A stretch of 64,000 nucleotides of DNA from an uncultured Actinomycetota bacterium (GCA_963753435.1 CAVWCF010000001.1:922711-986710); one strand, 5' to 3'. Positions 27,335-48,881 are shown, counted from the stretch's first letter. Numbers and translations: made by a program. Notes: generated from the letters alone by a model not told the origin.

Positions 27335-28018
27335 ATGCCGACACTGCTGGATGCGCTGGACGATCTCGTCTCGGCCGACGCAGCCAGGCCGCTGTTGACC
27401 TGGTACCGCGACGGGGCCCGGGTGGAACTGTCGGGGGCCACCGTGGCCAACTGGGTCGCCAAGACGGCGGGGCTACTGGAGAACGAGCTACTCATCGGGC
27501 CCGGCTGCACGGTTCGGGTTCTTCCGGGACAGCACTGGCTGTCGCTGGTGGTCCCGCTTGCTGTTTGGCGCGTAGGCGCCGCCCTCGTCGATGCTGGGCC
27601 GGCGGACCTGTTGGTGTCCGAACAAGTGGACGAGGACATCGATGCCGCGGAGTTCCTGATGCTGCCCAGCGACCCGTTCGGTCTGTCCCGCGCCGCGGTA
27701 CCGCCCCCGTGGCAACTCTTCAGCGAGTTGGTTCAGGCCCAACCCGATCGCTACACCGCGCCACTACCCGGCGGTCCGCAGTTGGCGATCGCGTCCGCGC
27801 CCCAGTTGACTCACGAGCAGCTGATCGACCGGGCCCACGCCGACGCGGCGGCCGTTTCGCTGCCGAGCGAAGGCCGGTTGCTGCTGGTCACCACAACCAA
27901 GTCCGCAGACCCCCTGCGGCTCTGGTGCGCAACCATCTCGGTGTCCGGCTCGATGATCCTCGCCGCGGAGTTGACCGAAGGGCTCGCGGCTGAGAAGGCC
28001 GACGTAACGATCAGTTGA
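27335..28018 (+). CDS. Conserved actinobacterial protein (TIGR03089-like)
   Basis: 227 aa, no recognisable catalytic motif. The family assignment is from memory of typical neighbours of this locus. Confidence 0.4.
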   Translation: MPTLLDALDDLVSADAARPLLTWYRDGARVELSGATVANWVAKTAGLLENELLIGPGCTVRVLPGQHWLSLVVPLAVWRVGAALVDAGPADLLVSEQVDEDIDAAEFLMLPSDPFGLSRAAVPPPWQLFSELVQAQPDRYTAPLPGGPQLAIASAPQLTHEQLIDRAHADAAAVSLPSEGRLLLVTTTKSADPLRLWCATISVSGSMILAAELTEGLAAEKADVTIS

Positions 28019-29510
28019 CGTGGGTGGCGGCCTGCCGAGCCACCGCGTCCGGCACGGCAGCGGGACCACCGACGATCGTGATCAGGTCAACGGTCGGAGT
28101 CGCGTCCAACCATGCGCCAACAGCGGCGGAGAGCACGGATGTGCCCGTCAACAGCACCGGCTGACCAAGAGCGCCACCCGGCAGCGCATCCACCACGTTC
28201 GCGGATGCCGCTGAGGCCAGAACCACTTCTTCGGCGTCGTCGCGGAACCGATCCGCCACCGCAACCGACAGGCCCGGCAGGTCTGCGACGTGGATCCGTT
28301 CTCCACCTGGCAGCGACGCGACCACGCCGTCGGTCAGTGGCGAAGCGAAGGAGACCGCAAAAGCCTGCGACACGCCGATCTGGGCCATCGCTTGAGCAGT
28401 GGTGGCCGGGACGTAGTCCGCTCGGGTCAGCAGGATCGGGGCCCTAATTGCCGCTGCCACCCCGCCGACCATCAGCGAAGTCGGGAGTTGGCTGTCCCAG
28501 AAGGGCGTGACGAATGCCTGGGGGGCTCCCCCGTTGATCTGGGCCAGTTCGCGGGCGATCTGCTCGGCGGTGACGAACCGATCCGCGCCGGCCAGTCGGG
28601 TCACGGCGATCCCCTCGCTCACCAGTTGGGCCTCGACGGCGGCGCCAACGGCGGCCGGACCCCCAAGCACGTAGGCCTGGTTGGCGGAGCGCCGTCGTAG
28701 TTCGGTGAGTGTCGCCGCGGGGATGCTGTCACCGCGGACGAGCAGCACGGGTGCGTCCGCCGAGGCCGCCAGCGGCGCTCCTACCAGCCCGTCGACCAAA
28801 TGCCCCTGCTCTCCGGACGCGATGACGACAGTTCGCTGGTTGGGCCTGGTCTCCTTGGCGATCGCAGCCGCAGTCGCGTACCGGTCCGAACCCCAAAGGC
28901 GGCGCACGTTGCAGCCGTCGGCACCGGGCAGGCAGCCACCGCCCGTGAAGAAGCTGGTCTCCCCCCGGGCTCCGGGCCAGGAGAACGAGATGTGGATGTG
29001 ATCGGTGTGTGGGCTCGAACCGGTGTAGGTGCGCCAAGGCTTGGCCGGGTCGGAGTCGTAGGCGCGCCACATGCGACCGTTCCAAATGACATACATGACG
29101 CCCATCCGCCGCGCCATCGCATGTTGGTTTCCGTGTGCGTCTGTGGCCAACAGCCAAGCCAGGAAGTCCTCAGCGACGGCCCGTTGGGCGGAGTTGCCGG
29201 CGTTCAGCATCCAGTCGAGCGCGCGACCCTCTTCATGGCCACTCGTGGTCGCGGAACTGCAGGACCGCAGCGTCCCGTAGCTGGTGTAGGTCGGATACGC
29301 CGTACGCAACAAGCTGATCGTCGCCGTGACGCCAGGCTGCACCGTGCTGGAGCACCCGGTTCCCTCGGTGGAGTCCCAGCCGGAGTACCCCTCAATCCAC
29401 GGACCGAAGTCAGTCGTCACCACCGGTGCTGCCGTAGCCGGCACCGAAGGCAGGAGGAGGCCCGTCGCTGCGAGCGCAACCGCTAGGGCGACGCGGATCA
29501 ACGAGGGCAT
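28011..29510 (-). CDS. Secreted LAS/M15-like zinc peptidase domain fused to three CWB2 cell-wall-binding repeats
   Basis: Signal peptide MPSLIRVALAVALAATGLLLPSVPATAAP. H-x6-D (SGHEEGRALDW) and H-x-H (HTDHIHISF) arrangement as in LAS metallopeptidases. Then three repeats of the CWB2 pattern (GSDRYATAAAIA...VVIASGEQGHLVDGLVGAPLAA...APVLL). Confidence 0.65.
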   Translation of the reverse strand: MPSLIRVALAVALAATGLLLPSVPATAAPVVTTDFGPWIEGYSGWDSTEGTGCSSTVQPGVTATISLLRTAYPTYTSYGTLRSCSSATTSGHEEGRALDWMLNAGNSAQRAVAEDFLAWLLATDAHGNQHAMARRMGVMYVIWNGRMWRAYDSDPAKPWRTYTGSSPHTDHIHISFSWPGARGETSFFTGGGCLPGADGCNVRRLWGSDRYATAAAIAKETRPNQRTVVIASGEQGHLVDGLVGAPLAASADAPVLLVRGDSIPAATLTELRRRSANQAYVLGGPAAVGAAVEAQLVSEGIAVTRLAGADRFVTAEQIARELAQINGGAPQAFVTPFWDSQLPTSLMVGGVAAAIRAPILLTRADYVPATTAQAMAQIGVSQAFAVSFASPLTDGVVASLPGGERIHVADLPGLSVAVADRFRDDAEEVVLASAASANVVDALPGGALGQPVLLTGTSVLSAAVGAWLDATPTVDLITIVGGPAAVPDAVARQAATHVN

Positions 29511-29553
29511 AACGCTGTCAGTCGGCACCGGTCCATGGGCACTTGAGCGCCCA

Positions 29554-31665
29554 TTAGGCGCGCATCGCCGCCAGCAGGGCCGCATCTGAGACGGGAGCCT
29601 TGGCGCCTACGGCCACGACCTCCTGGACTCCCGGCGTCGTCTGCAACCACACCGAGGCCGCCCCCGGCAGACCACCGGGCTGAGTCAGCAGCACCAGTCG
29701 TCCCCACGCCCCCGCGGGAAGGGCGTCCACCAGGTGGGCGTCGACACCGGCAGCCAGCAACACCGGGGTCGTCGGAACAACGGAACGGAACGCGCGGGCC
29801 ACTTCCGAGGCGGTCTCAAACCGGTTCGCGCCGTTGGCCCGCCACGCCTTCGGCAACTGCGCCGCCACTGCAGTTCCGACCTGAGCGGTTCCGCCGACGA
29901 TGGTGGCCGCAACCGGGCGGATCACATCCAAGACCTGACGCGTCGGCGTCGGAACCCCGTCGCGCGTTACCAACAGGATGGGACGACCGGAGCCAGCAGC
30001 CGCGCCGCCGGCCCCCAGCGCATCCGCCAAGGCCGTGCCGTTGACAACAAGTACCGGTCGGCCCTCGGGCACGCCCATCGCCCGAGCCACTGCCGCAGCG
30101 GTCTCGTACCGATCGGCACCGGCCAACCGCACCACCTTGGTGACGCCAGCCGCGGTAAGCCCGGCCACCACGGCATCGCTCAGTGCGCCGGTGCTCCCGA
30201 TGACATAGGCGGTGCGCGCCCCGCGCCGCTTGAGCTCGGACACTGTGACCGACGGCAAACCGCCCGCACGGGCCAGCAGCAGCGGCGCGCCTAGAGATTT
30301 CGCCAATGGCGCCGCGACCATGCCGTCGACCAGGTGCTCGGTCTCCCCGGAGGCGATGACCACCGTGGCTCCGGTGGGTACAGCCGCCTTGGCAACAGCC
30401 ACCGCGGTGGCGTACCGGTCCGCCCCGGCGACCCGGTCGCCCTGGCGCAACACCCACGTGGAGGGCAGCCCCAATGATGTGCGCAGCTTCTCGCCGGTGA
30501 TGCTCGCCGCCTTGCCGCTGGCCGACCATGCGGTCGCCCTCTTGACTCCGCCGCCGACGGTTCGGACGGACAGGTCCAGCCGGACTACATCCGGCAGTCC
30601 GAACGCGGCCGCCATCTTGGCCTGGCTGATTGATCGCGACCAGGCCCGGTATGGGTTGGATGACTCGGTTGCCCCAGGGTCTGCGACGCTGCGCAGGTAG
30701 GGCAACGCCGAGGACCAGACCTCTTCACTGTTCTGGGTGCGGCCGCCGCTGGAGGAGTAGTAGTAGGCGCTCACCGGCTTGCCGCCGTAGGCCACCACCT
30801 TGCCGGTAGTCGACCCCGTTGACGTGGCGTTCACCGCCGCGGTCCAAGCGCTGCCGTACGAGCCCGATTGCTTTGACCACCCGACGTAGACCTGGTCACT
30901 CGTCCCGTCGTAAAGGTGACAAGCGCAGGCCGAGCGGACGCCGGCGTTGTACTTGAGCACTGCGAAGGAACGCGCTGCGATCACCTGAGCCTGCAGAGCT
31001 GCGGCCGGCCAGGAGGAGGGCATCTCACCCAATCCGTACAGGTACTCGTCGCCGAGACGGAGGTTCACGACCACCTCGAGCTTGCCGCCAACCACCTGCG
31101 CGGTGACGAACCCATGGCGATACGTCGTGCCGTTGACGCTAATCAAGCTGGCGATGTCGCCGGTCGAGCCCGGGTAGCGGGTGCCGCCCCAGAGGAAGGT
31201 CACCTTGGCGCCGCTGCGGACCGTGCCGCCGTTGCGCTTGAGGACGACCGAGGAACCGCTAGGAGCGATCGTCCACGTGTCAGCGGCCGCCCCGACCATC
31301 CCCCAGGTGCCATCAACGCCCACGTGGATCTTGCCGCCGCCACTGGCCAGCGGTACCCCCTTGAGGGTCGCGGCCGAGGCCGCATGCAGGACGTTCACCC
31401 GCACAGTCATGTCGTCGCGCGCGGGCGCAGCGACAGCGCCGGTGTAGTAGTGGGCGACGATCTGGTCGGCGGACTTGCCAGCGGCAGCGAACGCCTTTGC
31501 CCCGTACTGCGACATGCCGACGCCGTGGCCGAAACCGGAGCCGTAGAGCGTGAATGTCGAAGGGGCACTGCCCGCTTGTGCGGCGGGAACCAGGAGTCCG
31601 GTGACCGACAGCGCCGTAACCGCCGCCAGCGCCCAGCCGGCCTTGATCGCGCGCGAGCCGATCAT
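29554..31665 (-). CDS. SpoIID/LytB-domain peptidoglycan lytic enzyme fused to three CWB2 repeats
   Basis: Signal peptide. SpoIID signature YGSGFGHGVGMSQYGA plus the second conserved block (YYSSSGGRTQNSEEVW). Three C-terminal CWB2 repeats (GADRYATAVAVA...; GADRYETAAAVA...; GANRFETASEVA...). Confidence 0.8.
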   Translation of the reverse strand: MIGSRAIKAGWALAAVTALSVTGLLVPAAQAGSAPSTFTLYGSGFGHGVGMSQYGAKAFAAAGKSADQIVAHYYTGAVAAPARDDMTVRVNVLHAASAATLKGVPLASGGGKIHVGVDGTWGMVGAAADTWTIAPSGSSVVLKRNGGTVRSGAKVTFLWGGTRYPGSTGDIASLISVNGTTYRHGFVTAQVVGGKLEVVVNLRLGDEYLYGLGEMPSSWPAAALQAQVIAARSFAVLKYNAGVRSACACHLYDGTSDQVYVGWSKQSGSYGSAWTAAVNATSTGSTTGKVVAYGGKPVSAYYYSSSGGRTQNSEEVWSSALPYLRSVADPGATESSNPYRAWSRSISQAKMAAAFGLPDVVRLDLSVRTVGGGVKRATAWSASGKAASITGEKLRTSLGLPSTWVLRQGDRVAGADRYATAVAVAKAAVPTGATVVIASGETEHLVDGMVAAPLAKSLGAPLLLARAGGLPSVTVSELKRRGARTAYVIGSTGALSDAVVAGLTAAGVTKVVRLAGADRYETAAAVARAMGVPEGRPVLVVNGTALADALGAGGAAAGSGRPILLVTRDGVPTPTRQVLDVIRPVAATIVGGTAQVGTAVAAQLPKAWRANGANRFETASEVARAFRSVVPTTPVLLAAGVDAHLVDALPAGAWGRLVLLTQPGGLPGAASVWLQTTPGVQEVVAVGAKAPVSDAALLAAMRA

Positions 31666-34025
31666 CGCGCGCTCCGAGCAGACAGGATCAGCACGCTGTC
31701 GGACACCGCCGCGGGGCCGCCGGCAATCGTGAGACTGCGAGCCCGGTCATCCAGCCATTGCTGCGTAGCCGATGGCAGCGCAGTCGGGGTGACCAGGACG
31801 ACCGATCGCCCCAGTGCCCCGGCGGCCAGCGCGTCAGCCAGGTTGGCCGTCATGCCACTGGCGACAACGGCCAAATCCGGCGCTGTTGCGAAGGAGAAAC
31901 CGTTGGCGACGGCGACCGCGGTTGCATAGCGGTCCGCCCCACCGAGCCGGGCGGCCTTGGGCAACTGGGTTCGCACCGTTTCCGAGATGACGCCAGTGCT
32001 GCCAATGACCGAAGTGGCCGTCGTGCCCAACGCGGTCAGCGCTTGCTTGGTTGCCGCTGGAACCTCGTTCTTGCGGGTCAGCAGGATGGGCCGACCGGAG
32101 GCCGCGGCCGGACCTGCTGCCGACAAGGCGTCGACCAAGGAGGCGTCCTCACCGGATGCAACCACCGCGGCCGTTCCGGTCGGCGCCAGCGCTTCGGCCA
32201 CCAGGCCGGCAGTTGCGAAGCGGTCGGCTCCGGAGATCTGAGTTACCGCGGCGCCAAGCGCGCGGACCTCGTTCAAAACCGTGGCCTGCAACGCGCCTAC
32301 CACGTAGACCTTGGTGGCACCGCGGCTGAGCAGTTCCGAGCGAACTGCTGGCGGGAGCTTGTCGTTGGCCGACAGCAGGACCGGTGCACCCAACTTCTTC
32401 GCGAGTGGGGCGACCACGAGCCCGTCGACGAGATTTCGCTGTTCACCGCTGACGAGGACGACGGTCTTCGCGCTTGGCGCCGCCTCGCGTCCCAGTGCCA
32501 CGGCCGTGGCCCAACGGTCGGACCCCCCGGACCGCGACGCATTCGGGCAGGCCAGGCTTGCCCCGGCACTCTTCAAGACCGTGTAGTAGTACTGCAGCGG
32601 ACGCGACGTGCTGCCGGAGCCGGAAGCTGTCAGCGTCAACCGGAACCGGCCGATGCCTGCGGACGCGCCGCTGTCGGTCTTGCCGTCCCACGGGATCAAC
32701 CACGAACCCGCCCCGGCGTCCCCCGACCAGGTGCGCACTGTGGCTCCCGCGCAGAAGTCCTCCACGCGCAGCTGCCAGGACTGCGGAATCGAGGATGTCG
32801 CGCGGATCCTGGCAACGGCCGACCCCAACACGCCCGAGCCGGAGTCGAAGCTCGGGTTGAACAGGGCGGCCCCGATCAGCGAACGGGCGGCGCTGCGAAT
32901 CGCCGACAGTTGGGAGAAGAGGTAGCGCCCCGGGCAGGCAGTGGAACCCACGTCGCGATGGGCCGCAAGCACCGGGATGGTCGCCTTCTGCCCGGCGGAG
33001 TACTTCGAAGTGCCGCCACCGCTGCTGGTCAAAGTCACCGAGCCAGTGGGGTCGCGGTGGAAAAGGTCCAGTTTCCAAGCAGCCACCCGCGATATCCCCT
33101 GCACCAGACCTGAGGTCGGAGAAGCGGTATCGAGGTTGCCGAGCGCAGCAATCGCGAAGGTGTCCGTGTTGAACCCACCGGTCGCGCCACTCTGCACGGC
33201 CTTGTCGACGCCACCGGCGCGACCCTCGTAGATGCGGCCCGCCTGGTCGACGAGGAAGTTATATGGGATGTCGGAGTAGCCACGGCTGTTAACCGAGTAC
33301 GCGTAGATGGCGCGAATGTCCTTGGCGGCGTCTGCCTGCGTCCAGCCCGACTTCTGCCAGTAGCTGTTCGACGACGCGGTGTGGTGCACGAAGCCGGCCC
33401 GGATCGTCGACATGTACTTGGGGCTGCCAGAGCGAAGCGACTCGTCAGCACCCCACTGGGCCCGGGACACGAATGCCGGGGTCGTTGCGGCTGCTTGCGC
33501 GCTGCTCACCGGAGTGGGAGTTATGGCGCCGTCGGCCGGCGAGGACCCGGGATCGATCAGTTCTACGCGAAGGTCCTTGGGCAACGCCTGCCCGCCGGCG
33601 ACAACACGCACCTGCACTGCGTCGGAGTCCGGAGCGAGCAGTGGCTCGGTGCCGCCTCTGGTGACCTGTTGGCCTTCCTCGCTGTTCGCATCCGGGCTGT
33701 CGTCGGACTGGTGTAGTTCGACCCACTCACCCCATTCGCCGCCGACCCGAGTCCGCACCTCGAACTCACTGCCGACCGGCTCGCGGCCGGACCAGGTGAT
33801 CCCGACGAGCCGGAACGGCTGCTCTGCCTCATGCGTGACCGTAGGCACAGACCCCGAGTCAGCGGCGAGCGAACTGGCTCCGGACGCCGTCAAGGAGACC
33901 TGCTCCACTACCGGGCTGACCGGTCGCGGCTTGGCCACGGCTGGCGTTGCCACTGGCAGGACCAAGACGGACCCGACGATGCCCGCTGCGGTGAGTGTGC
34001 TGAGCCAAATCCGTGGGGACAACAT
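31662..34025 (-). CDS. N-acetylmuramoyl-L-alanine amidase (Amidase_2/PGRP domain) fused to three CWB2 repeats
   Basis: Signal peptide MLSPRIWLSTLTAAGIVGSVLVLPVATPAVA. PGRP/amidase_2 block (FVSRAQWGADE...AGFVHHTAS...YNFLVDQAGRIYEGR). Three C-terminal CWB2 repeats. 4-nt ATGA overlap with the downstream SpoIID gene. Confidence 0.8.
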   Translation of the reverse strand: MLSPRIWLSTLTAAGIVGSVLVLPVATPAVAKPRPVSPVVEQVSLTASGASSLAADSGSVPTVTHEAEQPFRLVGITWSGREPVGSEFEVRTRVGGEWGEWVELHQSDDSPDANSEEGQQVTRGGTEPLLAPDSDAVQVRVVAGGQALPKDLRVELIDPGSSPADGAITPTPVSSAQAAATTPAFVSRAQWGADESLRSGSPKYMSTIRAGFVHHTASSNSYWQKSGWTQADAAKDIRAIYAYSVNSRGYSDIPYNFLVDQAGRIYEGRAGGVDKAVQSGATGGFNTDTFAIAALGNLDTASPTSGLVQGISRVAAWKLDLFHRDPTGSVTLTSSGGGTSKYSAGQKATIPVLAAHRDVGSTACPGRYLFSQLSAIRSAARSLIGAALFNPSFDSGSGVLGSAVARIRATSSIPQSWQLRVEDFCAGATVRTWSGDAGAGSWLIPWDGKTDSGASAGIGRFRLTLTASGSGSTSRPLQYYYTVLKSAGASLACPNASRSGGSDRWATAVALGREAAPSAKTVVLVSGEQRNLVDGLVVAPLAKKLGAPVLLSANDKLPPAVRSELLSRGATKVYVVGALQATVLNEVRALGAAVTQISGADRFATAGLVAEALAPTGTAAVVASGEDASLVDALSAAGPAAASGRPILLTRKNEVPAATKQALTALGTTATSVIGSTGVISETVRTQLPKAARLGGADRYATAVAVANGFSFATAPDLAVVASGMTANLADALAAGALGRSVVLVTPTALPSATQQWLDDRARSLTIAGGPAAVSDSVLILSARSAR

Positions 34026-34044
34026 TCCTCCGTCATTCCTCCGT
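34023..34044 (-). repeat. Perfect 11-bp tandem duplication covering the Shine-Dalgarno sequence and the ATG of the amidase gene (minus strand reads acggaggaatg acggaggaatg)
   Basis: Read directly: cattcctccgt at 34023-34033 and again at 34034-34044. Only the promoter-distal ATG (complement of 34023-34025) is in frame with the amidase ORF. Confidence 0.85.
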
Positions 34045-34168
34045 AGCGTTATCGCAGGCGCCAGCGGAAGCCGCCTCACCCATTTGGAGGTATCGGGCCC
34101 CGCCGCCGCGGACTTGAACACCCTGAGGCCTCCGCGCGCAGACACGCCAGAGGGCGGCCGAAAGGATC

Positions 34169-35401
34169 ATGGACGAGCGCCTACGGTGTTCCCCCGTGAG
34201 CTTCGGACGGACTCGACTTCCCCGGGTGGAGTCCCTCACCGGCCTGCGCTGGTTCGCCGCCTTCGCCGTCTTCGCTCACCACCTGAACAACTTCGCGCCC
34301 CTGCCGATCATCAAGGACATGGCGTTCGGTGTGACCGGCGTCACGTTCTTCTTCGTGCTCTCCGGGTTCGTGCTGACCTGGTCGGCGACCGCCAACGACA
34401 CCGCCGGCCGGTTCTACTGGCGCAGGTTCGCCCGCATCTGGCCGTTGCTGGCGGTGTCGACCCTCCTGGCGATTCCGGTCTTCTACGGCTCATCCGACAG
34501 TTTCCAGAAGCCGTTGGATTCCACGGCGCTGATCGGCATCGTCTTGTGCCTGCTCCTGCTGCAGGCCTGGTCGGACAACCCCGCCATCTTCTTCGCCGGC
34601 AACCCGGCCGCCTGGTCCCTGAGTTGCGAGGCGTTCTTCTACGCGATCTTCCCGCCGACCATCCGCCGAGCGATGCCGCGGGGAGTCCCGGCCATGCTGA
34701 TGGCCGCCGTCGGCCTCGTGATCGTGAGTTGGGCTCTCCTGTTGTGGCTGCGCTATGCACCACCGGACCCGGACTCACCGCTGCGCATCTTCTTCCGAGA
34801 GCCCATGTACCGGGTTCCGGAGTTCCTCTTGGGTGTTGTGCTTGGAGTGGCGGTTCGCGCCGGGTGGCGACCGCGCCTCTCGGTGCCCGCCGCGGTCGGG
34901 CTGGTCTTCCTCGGAATAGCCACCCTCGTCTTGTGGCGGCACAGCCCCGGCCTGACTGAGTCGTTCATGAAGCCAACTAGCGCCATGAATCAACTAATGG
35001 CGCCGCTGTACGGCCTACTGATCGTCGCCGTTGCCGTCCGCGACGTTCGCGGTGGTCAGTCCCGACTGCAAACCGGCTGGTTGGTCGCGCTGGGCAAGTG
35101 GTCCTACGCCTTCTACCTGGTGCACGCCACGGTGATCTACACCTTCCGCCTCGTCCTCGGCGTACAGCCTTCGTCGTGGTCCAACGTCGTATGGATCGGC
35201 CCCATGCTGCTGGCGTCAATCGCGGTTGCGGCCGCGTTGTACATATGGGTGGAGCACCCGACGGAACGGCGCCTGCGGGCCATGCTGCCGCCGCGGCCGG
35301 AAGAGCCCCCGACTGCCGACGACCCCGTTCCCGCTGCCACGACGACGGTTGCCGCTACGCGTGCGGACCCGGTCGACCGCGATGGCGGATCAGCCCGCTG
35401 A
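34169..35401 (+). CDS. Acyltransferase family 3 (OatA/OafA-like membrane O-acyltransferase)
   Basis: 10-11 TM helices. Conserved LRWFAAFAVFAHH start and the interior His/Ser pattern of the acyltransferase_3 family. 410 aa. Confidence 0.8.
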   Translation: MDERLRCSPVSFGRTRLPRVESLTGLRWFAAFAVFAHHLNNFAPLPIIKDMAFGVTGVTFFFVLSGFVLTWSATANDTAGRFYWRRFARIWPLLAVSTLLAIPVFYGSSDSFQKPLDSTALIGIVLCLLLLQAWSDNPAIFFAGNPAAWSLSCEAFFYAIFPPTIRRAMPRGVPAMLMAAVGLVIVSWALLLWLRYAPPDPDSPLRIFFREPMYRVPEFLLGVVLGVAVRAGWRPRLSVPAAVGLVFLGIATLVLWRHSPGLTESFMKPTSAMNQLMAPLYGLLIVAVAVRDVRGGQSRLQTGWLVALGKWSYAFYLVHATVIYTFRLVLGVQPSSWSNVVWIGPMLLASIAVAAALYIWVEHPTERRLRAMLPPRPEEPPTADDPVPAATTTVAATRADPVDRDGGSAR

Positions 35402-38038
35402 CCCCAACCCAAGGAAGGGCGCCAGAACAGCAGCGCTCTTCCTGCCATCGTGGAGTTCAGAGACGAATCTCAGCCCGGACGCCGCGGATGCGCGGACCTG
35501 CTCCGGATCGCTGAGCAGCGCCAGGAGCACCTGCTCGAGCGAGTCCGCATCCGCCTGAACCACTGGTAGCGGCAACGGCAGGCGGTCGCGAACCGACGCG
35601 GTCACGTTGCCGACAACGCACCTGCCCGCGGCCATCGCTTCGCAGGCCAGGACCCCGTAGGAGCCGATCGCGAATTGATCGAGCACGATGTCTGCAGCGG
35701 CCATGGCTGCGGGCATTTCCTCCGGTGGAACACCCTGCAGCCGCCGATAGGTGAGTACCCCGTCCGCCTCCAGGCGCTGAAGCAGCGAATCCACCCGGTC
35801 ACTGCCCTTGAGGGAAGACCGCGATGGGGCATGCAGCACCACCGGCGGCCCGTCGTGCTCCAACGGCGTTGTCGACGTTGCCCACATCTGCATGTCCACC
35901 ACCACCGGCAGCCACGTCGCGGTGGGCACGTCGTCCAGCAGGTCCGGCGTGGAAACAAAGACCGGCCCATCAAAGCTGTCGATGAGCGGCCGCAGCTCGG
36001 CCGTCACCCGGCTGAGCCGGGTGCTCAGTTCGCTGGTGGGGTCGGCGTACGGGGAGTGCAGATGCATACGACGGTGGCGGGCCGGGTCACGCACTTCCGA
36101 ACCGTGGAAGACCGCCGCGACCTCCAGGCCGTTGCTGCGCAGGGCTGCCGCATCGTCAGCGAAGGTGCGGCCATTGAGCAGCCCGGCGATCGGGCGCCCT
36201 GCTTCCAGCAGGACGTGGGTCGCGGTGTCGCAGAGGTGCGCGAAGTACTGCTGCTGCCACTGCAGATCCTTCGCGTAGGTGTCCGGCGAGATCCGCGTGT
36301 CCGCGGGGAAGTCCAAACCGCCCTTCTCCACGGCCAGCACCTCGGTCTGCACTTCGGGGTAGGCCCGGTGCACCGCCTGCGCCCACTGCCAGGCCTGCCC
36401 GGCCATGTTCGCCGGCCCAACGGCCAGGTGAGTCGCACCCGATGCCCGCCGGCCCGCCGCCGGTGTCGATTCCACCAAATCACCCGGATTGAGATCGGGC
36501 ACGCGGCCAAGGTCCGCCCAGTTCGCCTCCGGCAGCAGCCGGCGATACAGCTGCGCCAGTTCGGCTTCCTGCGCCTCCCAGGTGAGTGGCGCAAGCAGCG
36601 CAGCGTCGGTGACACGTTCTCGGTATTCGACGTACCCGGCGCGCACCCGGCCCACGGCGTCAGCCAGCGACCGCGGATCGTCCGCAACGTGCACCTCGCC
36701 GGTTCCAGTCTCGGCGAGGAACTCCGCTTGGGTGCGGCAGTCACTGGCCACGACGGGCAGCCCCGCGTGCAGGTACTCGAAGAGTTTGTTGGTCAGCGCC
36801 ATGTCGTGACTGCCGAAGTGCAGCAAGGGCAGCAGGCCGACATCAGCAGAGGACAGGAACGAAACGACGTCGCCAGGGGCTACCGGGTTGAGGAAGTGGA
36901 CACGATCCGAAACACCAACCGATGCCGCTTGCTCCCGAAGTCGCCGCACCGCATACGTGTCGTTGTGTGGCACACACACAACGGCCAAGTGCGCGTCGGG
37001 GAGTTGCGACAGCGCGTCGATGGCCGTCTGCACTCCCCGGGCCACCGTCACCCCACCGGAGTAGACGAGCAACAGGGTGTCCGCATCCAGACCACATTGC
37101 TCGCGGACGCCTTCCTGACGAGTTCCGCGGCGGCTCTCATCGTGGATCGGCGTGTTCAGGATCAGCGTCGGTTGCTGGCGTAACGAGTGCTCGCGCTGAA
37201 GCCGCGACGCGATCGCCGGGGAAACGGTGATGACTCCGTCGGCGCGGCGGATGAAGTCGGATTCCAGCGCCGCCCAAGCCGATCGCACTCGGGCGGTTCG
37301 TCCCCCGTACAGGCTCAGCCCGCGCACGTACTCATGCGCGTCATAAACCCAGGGTGTCTGCCTGCCGGCCCGTTCCGCCCGGACGGCGGCATTGGCGGCC
37401 ACCAGCAGCAGGTCGGCATCATGGGAATGGATCAGATCCGGCTGCAGCGAATCGATGACGGCCGCGTATGAGGTCTCGTAGTCGTACACCTGCGGTACCA
37501 CCCGACCCCAGACGACCGGCCACGTCAGCCGGGCCATCAACCCGTCGTAGGCACGCCAGGACTTCGTCCAGACCTTGGCGAAGCCGCGCTGCCCGGCTCG
37601 GCGGGCGCGCAACCACTGACCGCGCAACTGCCACCAGCGCCGACGCAGTCGCCGCCGCTCAATGCCGGCCCTGGTGTACTCCAGTCGCGCCCGGGCGCGG
37701 ACGGCCTGCTCCTCGGCGGGTGTTCGGTAGCCGACCAGGTTCGGCGGCCTGCGACGACGCCCGCGCGCGGCATTGCGTGCGTCCCGAGAGCGCCAGGAGA
37801 TGGGTATTCGCAGGACGGTTACTGGCCCCATGTTCCGGGTGCTGCGCCGACCATCCGAGGCGTACGCGATCAGCGTGACACGCGCGCCCAACCTGGCTGC
37901 CGACAGCGCCGTCTTGCGGATTCGGGTGTCCGCGGCGACGTCGTTGCCGGCCAGCATCACCACATGCGGTTGCACGGTCTCGCGGGCCACGTCCGGGTCG
38001 GTCACGTCGGGAAACCTATGCGGCGCCGCCGGGTCCAC
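35390..38038 (-). CDS. Large tandem GT-B glycosyltransferase (N-terminal GT4-like module plus a second GT-B module)
   Basis: 882 aa. Module 1 ends with the GT4 motif (LTNKLFEYLHAGLPVVASD...). Module 2 (from about HLAVGPANMAGQAWQWAQ) has a second GT-B C-lobe (VVLHAPSRSSLKGSD...ACEAMAAGRCVVGNV). Module 2 is paralogous to the C-terminus of the 39829-41694 protein. Confidence 0.65.
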   Translation of the reverse strand: MDPAAPHRFPDVTDPDVARETVQPHVVMLAGNDVAADTRIRKTALSAARLGARVTLIAYASDGRRSTRNMGPVTVLRIPISWRSRDARNAARGRRRRPPNLVGYRTPAEEQAVRARARLEYTRAGIERRRLRRRWWQLRGQWLRARRAGQRGFAKVWTKSWRAYDGLMARLTWPVVWGRVVPQVYDYETSYAAVIDSLQPDLIHSHDADLLLVAANAAVRAERAGRQTPWVYDAHEYVRGLSLYGGRTARVRSAWAALESDFIRRADGVITVSPAIASRLQREHSLRQQPTLILNTPIHDESRRGTRQEGVREQCGLDADTLLLVYSGGVTVARGVQTAIDALSQLPDAHLAVVCVPHNDTYAVRRLREQAASVGVSDRVHFLNPVAPGDVVSFLSSADVGLLPLLHFGSHDMALTNKLFEYLHAGLPVVASDCRTQAEFLAETGTGEVHVADDPRSLADAVGRVRAGYVEYRERVTDAALLAPLTWEAQEAELAQLYRRLLPEANWADLGRVPDLNPGDLVESTPAAGRRASGATHLAVGPANMAGQAWQWAQAVHRAYPEVQTEVLAVEKGGLDFPADTRISPDTYAKDLQWQQQYFAHLCDTATHVLLEAGRPIAGLLNGRTFADDAAALRSNGLEVAAVFHGSEVRDPARHRRMHLHSPYADPTSELSTRLSRVTAELRPLIDSFDGPVFVSTPDLLDDVPTATWLPVVVDMQMWATSTTPLEHDGPPVVLHAPSRSSLKGSDRVDSLLQRLEADGVLTYRRLQGVPPEEMPAAMAAADIVLDQFAIGSYGVLACEAMAAGRCVVGNVTASVRDRLPLPLPVVQADADSLEQVLLALLSDPEQVRASAASGLRFVSELHDGRKSAAVLAPFLGLGSAG

Positions 38039-38531
38039 CCGACAGCGCCTCGCGGTCGAGACCGGAGCGCAGGTCGGCGTTCGGACTCAGTCGGGCCAAG
38101 TGCCAGACCACGGGCCAGGCCGCTGCGGTCGTGGGGATGATCTGCGTCAACGTACCCGGGTCGATGGCGCGCAAGTAGTGCCTGCGGACAACGGCCCAGT
38201 CAAGCTGTGGCAGGACCGCTTCGACCGCCTTCGTGCCACGGAGGCCGGGCCACCAAGGAGCGGTTCGCAGCGGCGACTGCCGACGCACCAGCTTTGCCGC
38301 GACCGAGCGCGGATCTGCGGCCAACGGTGCGATCGGCAGTGTCGAGGGATAGCGGGCGGCGGTGTCGAAGACGCGCACACCTCTGGGCAGGTCCGGCCAG
38401 CCCTGCTTGTCGCGTCGAATCAACAACGCCTCCCCTCCAGCCCGTACTACTCGGCCGAGGTCGTTGACCATCTGCGGGCGTCGGTGGTCCTCGAGAGCGA
38501 CCACGAGAACCCGGGCTCGCGCCGCGTTCAC
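38016..38531 (-). CDS. Hypothetical protein, translationally linked between two glycosyltransferase genes
   Basis: 171-aa ORF whose ends overlap both neighbours by a few nt. No recognisable motif. It could be a degraded GT N-lobe fragment. Confidence 0.35.
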   Translation of the reverse strand: MNAARARVLVVALEDHRRPQMVNDLGRVVRAGGEALLIRRDKQGWPDLPRGVRVFDTAARYPSTLPIAPLAADPRSVAAKLVRRQSPLRTAPWWPGLRGTKAVEAVLPQLDWAVVRRHYLRAIDPGTLTQIIPTTAAAWPVVWHLARLSPNADLRSGLDREALSGGPGGAA

Positions 38532-39832
38532 AAGTCACCTTCGGCGGTTCGAACCAACCACTCCGCATGCGGGGTGACGGTGGCCGACCAGGTGTGGCGG
38601 GCAGCCAGCCGCCGGGTGGCGGCGACCTGCTCGTCAGTGCGCGCGACCGCGAGTCCAGCAAGCCGGGAGAAACCGTCCGCCACCTCGCCGGGAGACAACC
38701 CAGTCACCCCGCAATACAGCGGTGACTCGGCGAAGACCCGGCTCGTGTCATTCTCCGGGCCGTAAGCACCCAGCACCGGAAGGCCGGAGCCGAGGTAGTC
38801 GTACGCCTTGGCGGAAGTCACATATCCGGAAGTAGGCAGCGTCAGCAGGAGCGCGTCGAACCGGGCGTAGGTAGCGGCCAATTGCGGATGCGGAACCGAG
38901 CCCCCGTAACTGACGCCGTCGTCGGCGTAGCTGCTGATGATCGCACCGGCGGGATCACCACCAGAACGCCAGAACCCCAGGTGACCGTGCAAGACCAACG
39001 TGGCCTGCGACCCCGCCGCGGTATTCCGGAAGAGACGCCAACCGGCCAGGACTTCGGCCAACGGCAGGTCCGGACGGATGGTCCCCACGTAGCCGACGGA
39101 CAGGGGGCCGGACGGGGGCGGCCGCAGCGGCGTATTGAGGATCGCGGCGTCGAAGCCGTTCTCCATGACAACGATCCGGTCCGCCGCTTGCGGGTAGCGG
39201 TCGCGGTACCACTGGGCCAGGGCCTCGTTGACGGTGATCGTCCGCGCGGCGCGGCCGATGATCTTGCTTTCCCACGCCCAGGCCCGGTCTTGCGGGGCGA
39301 AGCGATCACGGCCGGTGAACTGGTCCATGGTCCAGGCGTCCCGGTAGTCGACGACCGAGGGGATGCGCAGGGCCCGGGCCACCGAATGCGCAGCGCCCAG
39401 CGACACGTACGGCCCCCCGGTGGCGAGCACGAGGTCTACCGGTCGCCGCCGATGCTCGCGCAGGGCCGACTGCACCAAGATGGGCAGTGCGTGCCCGTAC
39501 CGCTCCGGGAAGGCCGTCCGAGCCGCTCGCTCCCAGAAGGCCGAGTGCAATCGAGGCATGTTCCCCCGAGTCCAGGACATGGCGCGGAAGTCGGTGACCA
39601 AGTGCTGGTGTGGGAACCGGAAGTGCACCACTCGGACCTTGGGGCTGACTTCGGTGGCTGCGTCCCGATCGATGCCGGTCAGGTCGTCGTAGAAGGAATG
39701 GTCCACCGCCAGTGCCGTGACGTCCGCCCCGGCCTCGACCAGAGCGTTGGCCCAGGCCCTGATCCGGTTGACGCCGCTGCCCCGGGCCGGCGGGAAGTGA
39801 AACGGAAGCATGAGGACATGCGGTTGCCTCAT
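38528..39832 (-). CDS. GT4-family glycosyltransferase (paralogue of 46966-48297)
   Basis: N-terminus HVLMLPFHFPPARGSGVNRI. C-lobe with E-x7-E-like region (KAYDYLGSGLPVLGAYG). 434 aa. Confidence 0.7.
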   Translation of the reverse strand: MRQPHVLMLPFHFPPARGSGVNRIRAWANALVEAGADVTALAVDHSFYDDLTGIDRDAATEVSPKVRVVHFRFPHQHLVTDFRAMSWTRGNMPRLHSAFWERAARTAFPERYGHALPILVQSALREHRRRPVDLVLATGGPYVSLGAAHSVARALRIPSVVDYRDAWTMDQFTGRDRFAPQDRAWAWESKIIGRAARTITVNEALAQWYRDRYPQAADRIVVMENGFDAAILNTPLRPPPSGPLSVGYVGTIRPDLPLAEVLAGWRLFRNTAAGSQATLVLHGHLGFWRSGGDPAGAIISSYADDGVSYGGSVPHPQLAATYARFDALLLTLPTSGYVTSAKAYDYLGSGLPVLGAYGPENDTSRVFAESPLYCGVTGLSPGEVADGFSRLAGLAVARTDEQVAATRRLAARHTWSATVTPHAEWLVRTAEGDL

Positions 39833-41694
39833 CGCCCACCTCCGGTCCCCGAAGACAAGAAGCTCGCCAGCGCTTCCGCTGCCGCGTCGCCATTGTGGAA
39901 CCGTGCCACGAAGTCCCGGCCCGCTTCGCCCCGGCTGCGCAATATCTCCGGGTCGGCCAGCAGCGCCTCCATCTGCGCCGCCAACGTCTCCGGGTTGGCT
40001 TCAACGATGGGTACCTCCGCCGGGGAACGCTCCCGCAGGGTGGCCCCGACGTTTCCCACCACACACCTGCCCATAGCCATGGCCTCACAGGCCAAGTGGC
40101 CGTACAAACCCAGCAGCACCTGGTCCACCACCACGTCGGCGTCGGCGATGGTGGCCGCCACCTCTGCCGGTGTGATGCCTTGCAGTCGGCGGTAGCGAAT
40201 GCGGCCCGCCTCGGCCAGGGGCTGCAGCACCGCTTCGATCGCTGCGGTTCCCTTGAGCACGGGGTTCGACGGCGCGTGCACCACCAGCGGTGGTTCGGAG
40301 GTGGTCAGCGGTCGCGTCGTCGGCAGTCGGTTCATATCGACGGTGACCGGCAACCACGTTGCTTTCGGTACGTAGTCCAGAAGGTCGAGCGTGGAGACGA
40401 AGGTAGGACCATCGAACCCATCCAGCAGCGCCAGGAGTTGGTCGCACTTGGCCTGCAGCGTGGCGGTGTAGGGGTCATCGGGATCTGCGAAAGGTGAGAA
40501 GGCGTGGGCGTCGCGGTGCCGACGCGGATCGCGAACCTCCGAACCATGAAAGACGAGCCCGACGTGAATTCCCGCGTCACGCATCTCCTCGACGTCGCCA
40601 CGGAAATCAGATCCGTTCAGCGTCCCGAACAGTGGGCGTCCCGCCTCGACCAGGGCGTGCGTCCAAGTGGACAGACATTCAGTGCGCAAGCGCTCCTGCC
40701 AGGCGCGGTCCCGGGCGAAGACCTCCGCGGTGACGACCTCGTCCGCCGCATACGCGAACGCTCCCGCCTGGATCGCAACCACGCGGGTGTCCAGTCCGAA
40801 CGCCCTGTTCGCAGCGCCCGTCCAGGCAGCAGCCTGGCCGGCGGAGTTCGTTGGCCCCATACCGAACAGCGGTCCCGACACCGAACGAGCCGGCAGCGGC
40901 AATCGCTCCGGTTCGTCCCATGCGGGTCGCTCGGTCGCTTCGGTGAGGTCTGCGCCAAAACGATGGCAAATTTCGAGAACGTGCTCCCCCGCGGCCCTTG
41001 CATCGGTGTCGGCTGCAATGACTCCGTCCACAGCGGCGGCCATTCGGTTCGTCAGCCGCTCGGTCACGTCCGCGCCCAGCCATGAGCGACCAGCCGCGAG
41101 GGGTGCGGAGTCGTACAGAACCCGGAGGCGCCGACCTCGGCTGACAGCACGAGCCTTAGCCCGGGCGGCCGGCACGAGGAACTCCGCACCGGCCTGGACG
41201 AAGTCAGGTTCCAGGGAGTCAATCTCGCTTGCTACCGCTGTCTCAAGATCGAGAGCTTGGGCGATGTCCCTATCGCTACGGGCCCAACCCCATTCGGAGA
41301 ACAGTTGGTTGCTGGGCCATCGCCGGGCAATGCGCAGACGCAGATCCCACCAGGATCTGGCCAACCGGCGGTGCTCCAAACCCGCCCACTGCCGCTTGAG
41401 GCCCATCACCCGAATCGCAGTGCTCTCCCGATGCCCACTCGATTCGGATTCAGACGACCCCGCCGCGGTTGCCCCGCTACCCCAATCACGGAACTTGTGG
41501 CCAAGCGGTACCCGCCGAATGCGCACCGTGCCCAAGCGGGTCTCCCCGCGGTGGCCACCGGGAGTTGTGATCAGGATCGTGACGGCTAGGCCACGCCTTG
41601 CCAAATCCGTGGCAATCCGTCGGACCCGGTCATCGGGCTGGGCATCCCCCAGCGCGAGCAGGACCACGCGCGCGGGGGCGGGTAGCCCGGTCAC
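39829..41694 (-). CDS. GT-B-fold glycosyltransferase-like protein (C-terminal module paralogous to module 2 of 35390-38038)
   Basis: 621 aa. The C-terminal 350 aa align by eye with the 882-aa protein (FGMGPTNSAGQAAAW...VVHAPSNPVLKGT...ACEAMAMGRCVVGNV). The N-terminal 250 aa are Rossmann-like but degenerate. Confidence 0.6.
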   Translation of the reverse strand: MTGLPAPARVVLLALGDAQPDDRVRRIATDLARRGLAVTILITTPGGHRGETRLGTVRIRRVPLGHKFRDWGSGATAAGSSESESSGHRESTAIRVMGLKRQWAGLEHRRLARSWWDLRLRIARRWPSNQLFSEWGWARSDRDIAQALDLETAVASEIDSLEPDFVQAGAEFLVPAARAKARAVSRGRRLRVLYDSAPLAAGRSWLGADVTERLTNRMAAAVDGVIAADTDARAAGEHVLEICHRFGADLTEATERPAWDEPERLPLPARSVSGPLFGMGPTNSAGQAAAWTGAANRAFGLDTRVVAIQAGAFAYAADEVVTAEVFARDRAWQERLRTECLSTWTHALVEAGRPLFGTLNGSDFRGDVEEMRDAGIHVGLVFHGSEVRDPRRHRDAHAFSPFADPDDPYTATLQAKCDQLLALLDGFDGPTFVSTLDLLDYVPKATWLPVTVDMNRLPTTRPLTTSEPPLVVHAPSNPVLKGTAAIEAVLQPLAEAGRIRYRRLQGITPAEVAATIADADVVVDQVLLGLYGHLACEAMAMGRCVVGNVGATLRERSPAEVPIVEANPETLAAQMEALLADPEILRSRGEAGRDFVARFHNGDAAAEALASFLSSGTGGGR

Positions 41695-42983
41695 GCCTCG
41701 CCGATGACGCGCCTCACCACACCCGGGAACCTGCTGGCCTCGGTGACACCGCGACCATCCACCAAGGCCTTCAGGCCGGGTAGGTCCGCGACGGCCAACT
41801 CCCGGTACTCCGGGTGGTCGGCCTGAAGCACCGCGGCGTCCGCCGGCTCGCCCAGGTGGTACGGGGTGAAGCCCAGATCCGCCAACTCCGCATCGGAGTA
41901 CATCGGGTCGTGCACAGCCACGTGCGCGCCACGCTGCGCCAAGGCCGCGACGGTCGGGAAGACCCCGGAGAAGGCCGTCTCCTTCACACCACCCCGGTAG
42001 GAGGCGCCGAGAACCACCACGCGCTGATTCGTGAGGTCGCCCATGGCCTCAACAAGCAACTCCGTCGCGTACGACGGCATGGCCATGTTGGCCTCGCGGG
42101 CGGCACGCACCACCGTGGCGTCTGGGTCGTTGAACAAGTACAGACGCGGGTAGACCGGGATGCAGTGACCGCCGACAGCGATGCCCGGCCGATGAATGTG
42201 GCTGTAGGGCTGGGAGTTGGACGCGTCGATCACCTTGTGCACATCGATCCCGTGCTCGGCGGCGAACCGGGCGAACTGGTTGGCCAGCCCAATGTTCACA
42301 TCGCGGTACGTGGTCTCGGCCAGTTTCGCCATCTCCGCGGCCTCGGCCGAACCCAGGTCCCAGACACCGTTGGGGCTGGCCAGATCCGGACGGTCGTCGA
42401 ACTGCAGGACCGCCTCGTAGAAATCCCGGGCCCGGTCGGCACCGGCTGGCGCCAGCCCGCCGATCAACTTCGGGTACTTGCGCAAGTCGGCGAAGACGCG
42501 GCCGGTCAGCACGCGCTCCGGCGAGAAGACCAGATGGAAATCCGTGCCCTCGACCAGTCCGGAACCTTCTTCGAGCATCGGCTTCCACCGCGTCCGGGTG
42601 GTCCCGACCGGCAGCGTCGTTTCGTAGGAGACCAGCGTTCCTGGGGTCAGGTTCGCCGCGATGCTGCGGGTCGCCGAGTCCATCCAGCCGAAGTCGGGCT
42701 GCCAGGTTTCGTCGTTTACGAAGAGCGGCACGACCACGACCACGGCGTCCGCGCCAGGAACAGCCTGGGCGTAGTCGGTGGTGGCGGTGAGCAATCCGGA
42801 GCCCACTACGTCGGCCAGGTACTCGCCCAGGTGCGCCTCGCCCGGGAAGGGCTCGACGCCACCGGCCACTGCCGCGACCAGGTCCGGGTTGATGTCGACC
42901 CCGACCACCTGATGGCCGGACCGGGCGAACTGAACCGCCAGCGGTAGCCCGATCTTGCCCAGCGCGACAACCGCGATCTTCAC
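41691..42983 (-). CDS. UDP-N-acetyl-D-hexosamine 6-dehydrogenase (WbpA/WecC-type nucleotide-sugar dehydrogenase)
   Basis: GTG start VKIAVVALGKIGLPLAVQFA (NAD-binding GxGxxG). Catalytic Cys region (GGHCIP). UDP-binding C-terminal domain. The long upstream part of the 610-aa ORF is antisense-like low complexity and is excluded. Confidence 0.8.
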   Translation of the reverse strand: MKIAVVALGKIGLPLAVQFARSGHQVVGVDINPDLVAAVAGGVEPFPGEAHLGEYLADVVGSGLLTATTDYAQAVPGADAVVVVVPLFVNDETWQPDFGWMDSATRSIAANLTPGTLVSYETTLPVGTTRTRWKPMLEEGSGLVEGTDFHLVFSPERVLTGRVFADLRKYPKLIGGLAPAGADRARDFYEAVLQFDDRPDLASPNGVWDLGSAEAAEMAKLAETTYRDVNIGLANQFARFAAEHGIDVHKVIDASNSQPYSHIHRPGIAVGGHCIPVYPRLYLFNDPDATVVRAAREANMAMPSYATELLVEAMGDLTNQRVVVLGASYRGGVKETAFSGVFPTVAALAQRGAHVAVHDPMYSDAELADLGFTPYHLGEPADAAVLQADHPEYRELAVADLPGLKALVDGRGVTEASRFPGVVRRVIGEA

Positions 42984-43064
42984 CCGTGGCCCTCTCTTTC
43001 GGTGATGGGAGGTTACCCGGCGCGCTACCCTCCCCCGCACTCTTCGGGACACAGGAGGGCCTTT

Positions 43065-48860: not shown

Positions 48861-48881
48861 GCTGAACGAGCGGCGGGACAG

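Follow-up and report, generated by a model that had tools for sequence, protein, structure and literature searches.

In a 64,000-nucleotide (nt) stretch of DNA from an uncultured Actinomycetota bacterium (GCA_963753435.1 CAVWCF010000001.1:922711-986710; hereafter the window, G+C ~0.69), three consecutive genes on the minus strand encode exported peptidoglycan hydrolases, namely an N-acetylmuramoyl-L-alanine amidase (gene 1), a SpoIID/LytB-domain protein (gene 2) and a metallopeptidase of the VldE/MT3 type with a LAS fold (gene 3). Our analysis confirmed these genes, which probably form an operon, and showed that each product has its own triple CWB2 wall-binding module (Table 1). An independent gene call on a metagenomic contig with identical proteins gave the same lengths of 787, 703 and 499 amino acids (aa). 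The boundaries also agree with those of an earlier, sequence-only reading, which had described three consecutive minus-strand genes, two of them joined by an ATGA. Indeed, the stop codon of gene 1 overlaps the start codon of gene 2 by 4 bp (cgATGAtc at 31662-31665), and the gap between the stop of gene 2 (29554) and the start of gene 3 (29510) is 43 nt. A signal peptide had been proposed for each protein as well. Inspected by eye, all three N-termini have the appearance of Sec-type signal peptides, with a basic residue, a hydrophobic core and an A-x-A site, and cleavage is predicted at AVA/K in the amidase, AQA/G in the SpoIID protein and ATA/A in the VldE-like protein. Longer open reading frames (ORFs) starting at 34145 for gene 1 and at 29585 for gene 3 were rejected because the shorter starts yield signal peptides; the longer starts also disagree with the independent gene calls and with the homologue alignments (homologues of gene 3 align from residue 6). 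Directly upstream of and across the amidase start codon lies a tandem duplicate, GGAGGAATG-AC-GGAGGAATG (34026-34045, minus strand), the first ATG of which is out of frame. The duplicated GGAGGAATG could be a strong or unusual ribosome-binding arrangement.

All three proteins carry three tandem, non-identical CWB2 repeats, which are C-terminal in each case. The three repeats per protein had been noticed from the sequence, and their scores lie far above the gathering cutoff of PF04122 (CW_binding_2; 24.9 bits), with 128 bits for the amidase, 127.1 bits for the SpoIID/LytB protein and 107.3 bits for the VldE-like protein. Moreover, the three modules are 41-44% identical to each other in pairwise comparisons (E 1e-39 to 1e-47), which shows that the matches are not due to chance. 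The module of the SpoIID protein aligns to the CWB2 structures of Clostridioides difficile Cwp6 and Cwp8 (5J72 and 5J6Q). Within the amidase module we found GADRFAT at aa 599 and GADRYAT at aa 696, together with PVLL at aa 547 and PILL at aa 645. The module of the VldE-like protein has PVLL, PILL and PVLL at aa 253, 357 and 450, respectively. A P[ILV][ILV][LV] sequence (PVLL, PILL or PLLL) is present in seven of the nine repeats and the hydrophobic triplet in all nine, since the third repeat has only the triplet in two proteins, the amidase (SVVL) and the SpoIID protein (LVLL). In C. difficile, anchoring requires all three CWB2 repeats, and the Pro of the PILL motif is dispensable whereas its ILL part is essential (PMC4973711).

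The amidase consists of an N-terminal Rv3811_N-like domain (40-44% identical in the corresponding proteins of the metagenomic loci L002, L081 and L084), the catalytic domain and the CWB2 module, with a weak FlgD_ig-like stretch, below threshold, following the catalytic domain. The proposed Amidase_2/PGRP assignment was corroborated by PF01510 (Amidase_2; 38.3-38.5 bits against a cutoff of 26). The closest solved relatives of this domain are PGRP domains, and its HRDVGSTACPG sequence aligns to a PGRP structure. The zinc-ligand pattern is kept, comprising the histidines of FVHHTAS and the pair H356-x7-C364 (H356-RDVGSTA-C364). The Cys of this zinc site separates catalytic from non-catalytic PGRPs.

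For gene 2, a SpoIID/LytB domain with GFGHGVGMSQYGA had been proposed, and both the family and the motif stand. The protein scored 162 bits with TIGR02669 (SpoIID_LytB; cutoff 83.3) and 46.4 bits with PF08486 (SpoIID; cutoff 23), and phmmer matched it to Bacillus anthracis SpoIID (4RWR) with an E-value of 7.6e-28. It scored below the equivalog cutoff of spore_II_D (TIGR02870; 147.9 against 234.75 bits), and we found no sporulation gene context in the window. The match to 4RWR falls into two stretches that are out of order: the segment that holds GFGHGVGMSQYGA (at aa 44-56) aligns to residues that are C-terminal in B. anthracis SpoIID, and the rest of the domain, which follows it in our protein, aligns to the residues that precede them in 4RWR (Table 1). 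This order indicates that the domain is circularly permuted. Judged by these alignments, it belongs to a permuted subfamily that still lies within the SpoIID/LytB family. The segment with the GHGxGMSQ motif has the permuted position in all actinobacterial loci and the canonical, C-terminal one in the Bacillus locus L072. At E<=1e-10, more than 5000 database proteins match the SpoIID protein; alignments of the best 120 listed, of which nearly all those named are actinobacterial, extend over 85-99% of the query, and these proteins thus share the permuted order. In the predicted model, the strand-plus-GHGVGMSQYGA segment (aa 42-78) has a predicted local distance difference test (pLDDT) score of 90-98. 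In the alignment with 4RWR, the catalytic-motif Glu (Glu214, in LYGLGEMPSS) falls on the SEM, and it is invariant, like the C-x-C pair and the GHGVGMSQ segment, in 42 actinobacterial homologues. The catalytic Glu motif of SpoIID is GVVxxEMP/S (PMC6934232). The C-x-C pair is followed by a His (SACACH at aa 247-249, 30919-30927, minus strand; consensus CxCH in the same 42 homologues). It occupies the position of the zinc site of clostridial SpoIID, yCxdxxHCQ, a site that bacilli do not have. To judge from this position, CxCH could be the zinc site of the actinobacterial SpoIID subfamily.

Gene 3 had been read as encoding an LAS/M15-like domain with an H-x6-D...H-x-H pattern. The LAS fold and the His and Asp residues hold, while membership in M15 is not established. 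PF26571 (VldE), a peptidase family, has a precomputed match on the identical 499-aa protein, and 61 of the protein's 62 listed homologues carry it too; full-length homologues align over residues 6-496. In an alignment of 58 sequences, positions H69, G72, R73, D76, R112, H145, H148 and H150 are invariant and map to H92-x6-D99 (in HEEGRALD) and H168-x-D170-H171-x-H173 (in HTDHIH) of the gene 3 protein. Two Cys of the domain (C30 and C61 in alignment numbering) are nearly invariant. The AlphaFold model of the domain reached a pLDDT of 90.6, and in a Foldseek search only crystal structures of the VldE C-terminal domain were significant (9FLN, 9FLH and 9FLM among the top matches). All of the top five matches in the PDB were VldE, with E-values from 3.7e-7 to 1.4e-5, probability 1.0 and template-modelling (TM) scores, normalised to the target, of 0.72-0.81. 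The phmmer search against PDB sequences gave a marginal match to 9FLH only (E 0.01), so it is the structure prediction and the Foldseek result that make the VldE assignment convincing. Among viral structures, the matches at E<=0.001 (down to rank 9) were phage proteins that are ARB-07466-like, peptidoglycan-binding or unnamed, and named tape-measure proteins followed at E-values of 3e-3 to 1e-2. No Pfam family, M15 families included, matched the N-terminal 207 aa at E<=10, and the structure matches to M15A, M15B, MepA and hedgehog were non-significant; the relation to M15 is one of clan and fold only. The Pfam-A version that we scanned holds neither PF26571 nor PF27503, and four homologues labelled PF26571, run as a control, were equally blank for PF26571. 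We therefore rejected the blank scan as a sign of a failed peptidase assignment, and it is no evidence of novelty either.

PF26571 has the LAS fold and belongs to clan MD, and its sole characterised member is pneumococcal VldE (Spr1875), a zinc L,D-endopeptidase (PMC11667670). VldE cleaves the L-Ala-D-iGlu bond in the acceptor stem of cross-linked peptides and not the cross-bridge (PMC11667670). Mutation of any one of its residues H301, D308, H370, D372, H373 and H375 abolishes activity (PMC11667670), and these residues correspond to H92, D99, H168, D170, H171 and H173 of the gene 3 protein. By analogy, the gene 3 protein would be an L,D-endopeptidase specific for L-Ala-D-iGlu. That the third enzyme cuts the peptide cross-link, as had been suggested, is not established; its sole characterised relative cuts L-Ala-D-iGlu within cross-linked stems.

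Table 1. Positions of the operon genes, their domains and neighbouring features in the window
Feature	Position	Strand	Basis
Gene 1: secreted N-acetylmuramoyl-L-alanine amidase with C-terminal triple CWB2, 787 aa	31662..34025	-	ORF, Pfam, independent gene call
Rv3811_N-like N-terminal domain, ~aa 31-195 (boundaries approximate)	33441..33935	-	Precomputed PF27503 match on the exact protein
Amidase_2/PGRP catalytic domain, aa 207-366	32928..33407	-	PF01510
Triple CWB2 of the amidase, ~aa 500-787	31665..32528	-	PF04122, 3 stretches
Gene 2: secreted SpoIID/LytB-domain protein with C-terminal triple CWB2, 703 aa	29554..31665	-	ORF, Pfam, TIGR02669, gene call
GFGHGVGMSQYGA segment, aa 42-78	31432..31542	-	Aligns to 4RWR residues 280-316 (C-terminal in B. 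anthracis SpoIID)
Rest of SpoIID/LytB domain, aa 79-405, including Glu214 in GEMP and C247-x-C249-H	30451..31431	-	TIGR02669; 4RWR residues 69-276
Triple CWB2 of the SpoIID/LytB protein, aa 411-703	29557..30435	-	PF04122, 3 stretches
Gene 3: secreted VldE/MT3-type LAS metallopeptidase with C-terminal triple CWB2, 499 aa	28011..29510	-	ORF, gene call (PF26571, PF04122)
VldE-like catalytic domain, aa 27-200, H92-x6-D99 and H168-x-D170-H171-x-H173	28911..29432	-	PF26571, alignment, model
Triple CWB2 of the VldE-like protein, ~aa 204-499	28014..28901	-	PF04122, 3 stretches
Divergent intergenic region between the amidase and Acyl_transf_3 genes, 143 bp; likely promoter region of the operon	34026..34168	.	
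Wall-glycopolymer locus, candidate source of the CWB2 ligand, ~22 kb	34169..55516	.	Pfam and NCBIfam scans
UDP-ManNAc dehydrogenase	41691-43523	-	
2-epimerase	43002-44126		
3-dehydrogenase-like	44198-45199		
DegT aminotransferase	45196-46488		
Wzm/Wzt ABC exporter	49958-51617		
LCP ligase	53945-55516		
Fourth CWB2 protein, 703 aa, N-terminal triple CWB2	56075..58186	+	tblastn, PF04122 (155 bits, 3 stretches)
TIGR03089-family gene	27335-28018	+	148 bits against a cutoff of 85

Furthermore, we scanned species-representative genomes with the SpoIID protein and searched the gene 3 protein in a representative library of 50%-identity clusters. The species representatives closest to the SpoIID protein were 50-53% identical to it and came from metagenome-assembled genomes (MAGs) labelled Actinomycetes, Acidimicrobiales or Actinomycetota. 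CWB2 proteins were also seen in Kineococcus (L030 and L058). The trio recurs in unchanged order in four other metagenomic loci (L002, L080, L081 and L084), giving five divergent loci, the window included, with identical gene content and order. The trio of L002 is complete and has the same architectures; that of L081 is complete as well and both of its gene junctions overlap (SpoIID-to-VldE by 4 bp), and in L080 and L084 the amidase gene is cut at the contig end. In all four loci the amidase stop and the SpoIID start coincide. At the SpoIID-to-VldE junction, the trio loci other than L081 have a gap of 43-83 nt or a start that is not fixed. Between the window and the trio loci, the catalytic domains are 43-68% identical, which means that the arrangement has persisted through considerable divergence. 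About a dozen of the 50%-identity clusters matched over the full VldE-CWB2 protein, and looking up some of them yielded three more copies of the trio.

Pairs of an amidase and a SpoIID protein also occur with an amidase of another family. In a Coriobacteriia MAG (L011), next to glycosyltransferase genes, an Amidase_3-CWB2 gene is immediately followed by a SpoIID-CWB2 gene. In Bacillus sp. ISL-55 (L072), the two genes follow each other in the same order with a 236-aa ORF between them, again beside a glycosyltransferase gene. These two loci indicate that the pairing of an amidase with a SpoIID/LytB protein is older and wider than the clade of the window and that it was built with two unrelated amidase families. 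A run of genes encoding subtilase-CWB2, Amidase_3-CWB2, SpoIID-CWB2 and a GT4 glycosyltransferase is common to L011 (4324-11268) and L072 (2619-12563), which suggests an old or horizontally shared cassette of CWB2 genes.

On its divergent side, the operon is next to a wall-glycopolymer locus. This locus contains genes for an O-acyltransferase, several GT4 and GT2 transferases, a UDP-N-acetylmannosamine (UDP-ManNAc) dehydrogenase, a UDP-GlcNAc 2-epimerase, a 3-dehydrogenase, a DegT aminotransferase, a Wzm/Wzt (TagGH-like) exporter of the ATP-binding cassette (ABC) type and an LCP ligase. The sugar genes point to a ManNAc-uronic or 2,3-diamino-uronic sugar, as far as family assignments can tell. 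At the end of the locus away from the operon, the LCP ligase gene is directly followed by a fourth CWB2 gene, so that CWB2 genes bracket the glycopolymer locus. The C-terminal ~330 aa of its product had no Pfam or NCBIfam match. Two large GT4-like proteins of the locus (882 and 621 aa) have a common C-terminal region without family assignment. The ORF of the UDP-ManNAc dehydrogenase has an N-terminal extension of ~180 aa, its NAD-binding domain starting at aa 182, and there is an overlap with the ORF of the divergent epimerase. The two parts of the dehydrogenase ORF match in different frames in L002. Probably either the dehydrogenase start was over-called or a small separate gene is present.

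On the other flank lie a TIGR03089-family gene, a GDP-mannose pyrophosphorylase gene, a GT2 gene and F420 genes. The TIGR03089 gene converges on gene 3, with an overlap of 8 bp at the 3′ end of the latter. A TIGR03089 gene, with the GDP-mannose pyrophosphorylase gene after it, is likewise the neighbour in L002, L003, L081 and a further contig. In L002, L003 and L081, too, the hydrolase genes have UDP-ManNAc dehydrogenase and epimerase genes to one side and TIGR03089, ManC, FbiB and CofD genes to the other; in L081, the epimerase was not detected and only the end of the dehydrogenase gene lies inside the locus. Hydrolase genes adjoin the UDP-ManNAc dehydrogenase gene in L002, L003, L005 and L081, the 2-epimerase gene in L002, L003 and L005, and the LCP ligase gene in L005 and L081. 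In L005, the LCP ligase gene and these sugar genes have a SpoIID-CWB2 gene beside them. Upstream of the F420 genes of the window, a gene for a DUF5719 protein (483 aa) is coupled to that of a 1048-aa GT2-family protein (12980-17574, minus strand), which looks like a conserved envelope pair.

Taken together, family assignments and precedents in other bacteria lead us to favour, with reasonable though not strong confidence, a mechanism in which the three proteins are co-transcribed, dock on the polymer of the neighbouring locus and divide the work between an amidase, a stem-peptide endopeptidase and a protein that cleaves glycan or enhances the amidase. One transcript, starting in 34026-34168, would give rise to all three proteins, which would be exported by Sec. 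Their CWB2 triplets would then dock non-covalently on a secondary wall polymer, most plausibly of a ManNAc-uronic-acid type, that would be made, exported through Wzm/Wzt and ligated to peptidoglycan by an LCP protein, all encoded in the neighbouring locus. The PGRP-type amidase would strip stem peptides from N-acetylmuramic acid, and the VldE-type zinc peptidase would cut stem peptides in cross-linked muropeptides (at L-Ala-D-iGlu, if it acts like VldE). The SpoIID/LytB-type enzyme would cleave the denuded glycan as a lytic transglycosylase, stimulate the amidase, or both. Physiologically, the trio probably serves wall turnover or the separation of daughter cells. That the proteins are expressed as a set gains support from the conserved order of the trio in L002, L080, L081 and L084. 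In C. difficile, CWB2 triplets bind the secondary wall polymer PSII, the locus of which adjoins the CWB2 gene cluster (PMC4973711). The idea of polymer targeting fits with this precedent and with the conserved adjacency of the hydrolase genes to ManNAc-uronic acid and LCP genes.

Several points weigh against this mechanism. Regarding co-transcription, no clear Shine-Dalgarno sequence lies in the 43 nt ahead of gene 3, and the promoter and terminator scan gave no signal above chance. The absence of a sigma-70 consensus match in 34026-34168 is uninformative for a genome of 69% G+C. The trio is also not obligatory, since VldE-CWB2 occurs without its partners: in one locus it lies at the same chromosomal position and a SpoIID gene is not directly upstream (the contig ends ~700 bp before the gene), and it was found without the other two genes in Ornithinimicrobium (L046) and in L065. 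Conversely, L003 has the amidase and SpoIID genes only. For the polymer, we know of no CWB2 ligand in any actinobacterium. The VldE-like bond specificity is extrapolated from a single enzyme with a structure-based identity of 22%, and Glu368 of the VldE zinc-zipper loop is a Ser in the gene 3 protein, so that the four-zinc state may not exist there. For the SpoIID protein, Foldseek with the high-confidence model retrieved no SpoIID structures and only spurious galectin matches. In addition, B. subtilis LytB alone does not hydrolyse peptidoglycan (PMC10653849), and lytic transglycosylase activity of the SpoIID-like protein can thus not be assumed. Whether this protein is a lytic transglycosylase or an enhancer only is the main uncertainty within the proposed mechanism; by analogy with LytB, it might be an amidase enhancer instead of, or besides, a lytic transglycosylase.

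Taken to its end, this uncertainty leads to an alternative that we regard as somewhat unlikely, in which the SpoIID/LytB-type protein is a wall-bound activator of the upstream amidase, like LytB (CwbA), and the operon attacks two types of bond and not three. The SpoIID gene is translationally coupled to the amidase gene and its product scores below the spore_II_D cutoff, as would suit such a protein. LytB stimulates lytic amidases without hydrolysing peptidoglycan itself (PMC10653849), and in B. subtilis SpoIIP is stimulated even by SpoIID that lacks catalytic activity (PMC6934232). However, the invariance of the catalytic-motif Glu, the GHGVGMSQ segment and the C-x-C pair in the 42 actinobacterial homologues argues for selection on an active site. 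We also considered three independent autolysins that do not cooperate and are clustered only since CWB2 genes gather near the polymer locus, as do the ~29 cwp genes of C. difficile. In line with this, unrelated CWB2 proteins (subtilase, trypsin and ThuA-like) adjoin SpoIID-CWB2 genes in L010, L011, L005 and L072, VldE-CWB2 stands alone in some loci, and CWB2 modules are not cleanly sorted by gene across loci (the only reciprocal pairs being window-L002 and L080-L084). Against this reading stand identical content and order in five loci at 43-68% identity, stop-to-start coupling of the amidase and SpoIID genes in each, and an amidase and SpoIID/LytB pairing that arose with two unrelated amidase families. 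Biochemical precedent, the dependence of SpoIID on an amidase (PMC6934232), likewise speaks for cooperation, and we consider independent action unlikely.

That the proteins are exported weapons or a lysis cassette of a phage or mobile element, aimed at other cells and not at the producer's own wall, is highly improbable. Amidase_2 domains are common in endolysins, and phage proteins include structural relatives of the VldE-like domain, named tape-measure proteins being among the weaker of these matches (E 3e-3 and above). Against this, the operon has no phage or mobility genes at its flanks, which hold housekeeping genes (TIGR03089, GDP-mannose pyrophosphorylase, F420 and glycopolymer genes). 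The synteny is conserved across lineages, the G+C content is unremarkable, and the proteins have Sec signal peptides without a holin. Moreover, CWB2 anchors keep proteins on the wall of the producer in known cases (PMC4973711). A prophage or mobile-element origin was rejected on gene context and conserved synteny.

If the proposed division of work is true, a single co-inherited unit would hold all three bond-cleaving activities for dismantling peptidoglycan. The operon would then offer a small, naturally occurring system in which to test two ideas that have been documented in Firmicutes only so far, namely that SpoIID/LytB-family proteins act downstream of, or jointly with, an enzyme that removes stem peptides, and that CWB2 triplets recognise a secondary wall polymer whose genes lie next to theirs. 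For the VldE/MT3 family, which was defined recently, the operon would supply a conserved set of genomic partners in Actinomycetota, in which the family has many members but has gone unstudied. Its practical use is modest, as the domains are all recognised by current profile libraries and the organisms are uncultured. More speculatively, and with considerable doubt, the operon may represent a vegetative, polymer-docked counterpart of SpoIIP/SpoIID in non-sporulating Actinomycetota, in which three separately anchored enzymes would act one after the other, in a set sequence, on one stretch of wall. Their placement would follow the sites where the neighbouring locus deposits its ManNAc-uronic-type polymer, so that the pattern of the polymer, and not a divisome protein, would set the site of wall opening for daughter-cell separation, and the permuted SpoIID with C-x-C-H would be the ancestral or the actinobacterial form.

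Among known systems, the pair of genes 1 and 2 resembles lytB-lytC of the lytABC autolysin operon in B. subtilis, where lytB (SpoIID family) neighbours lytC, the gene of the LytC (CwlB) amidase, in the same regulon and LytB stimulates the amidase (PMC10653849). In both cases, adjacent co-directional genes encode a wall-bound amidase and a SpoIID/LytB protein. Unlike in lytB-lytC, the amidase of the window is of the Amidase_2/PGRP type and not Amidase_3, its gene comes first, the SpoIID domain is permuted and a VldE-type peptidase gene is added; no LytA-like lipoprotein gene was seen at the operon. LytB and LytC each carry three CWB2 repeats as well, which are N-terminal there and C-terminal here. 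The lyt operon sits among the tag, tua and mnaA wall-polymer genes.

The fusion of triple CWB2 modules to various enzymes, including peptidoglycan hydrolases, is shared with the C. difficile Cwp family (e.g. the Cwp6 amidase). There, the immediate neighbour of the CWB2 gene cluster is the PSII locus with manC, glycosyltransferase and LCP genes (PMC4973711, PMC5065235). In contrast to C. difficile, the window is from Actinomycetota and has an ABC exporter and ManNAc-uronic or diamino-sugar genes instead of MviN and a polymerase; we identified no S-layer protein here, and an amidase-SpoIID-VldE triplet is not known from the cwp cluster. In the engulfment machine SpoIID-SpoIIP(-SpoIIM), SpoIIP removes and unlinks stem peptides, after which SpoIID cleaves the denuded glycan, and SpoIID is inactive without SpoIIP (PMC6934232). 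By analogy, the operon would combine the same three chemistries in the same division, amidase and endopeptidase followed by glycan cleavage by a SpoIID-family protein. Neither SpoIIP (PF07454) nor SpoIIM was detected, and, unlike in SpoIID-SpoIIP, the amidase and endopeptidase are two proteins of unrelated families, predicted to be soluble and polymer-anchored and not membrane-anchored. The gene 3 protein shares PF26571, the motif residues and the LAS fold with VldE (Spr1875) of Streptococcus pneumoniae and with the MT3 motif in the tape-measure protein of mycobacteriophage TM4. Like VldE it is modular, joining an MT3 domain to a wall-binding module, which is a C-terminal triple CWB2 here and an N-terminal LysM in VldE.

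All domains of the operon are thus in current profile libraries, the amidase-CWB2 and SpoIID-CWB2 architectures are annotated in databases, and Firmicutes already provide documented cases of a lytB-lytC-like pair and of CWB2 genes linked to a polymer locus. In this uncultured actinobacterial clade, what differs from these systems is the conserved addition of a VldE-CWB2 peptidase, a fusion found in only about a dozen clusters, together with the PGRP-type amidase, the C-terminal position of the anchors and the permuted SpoIID domain.

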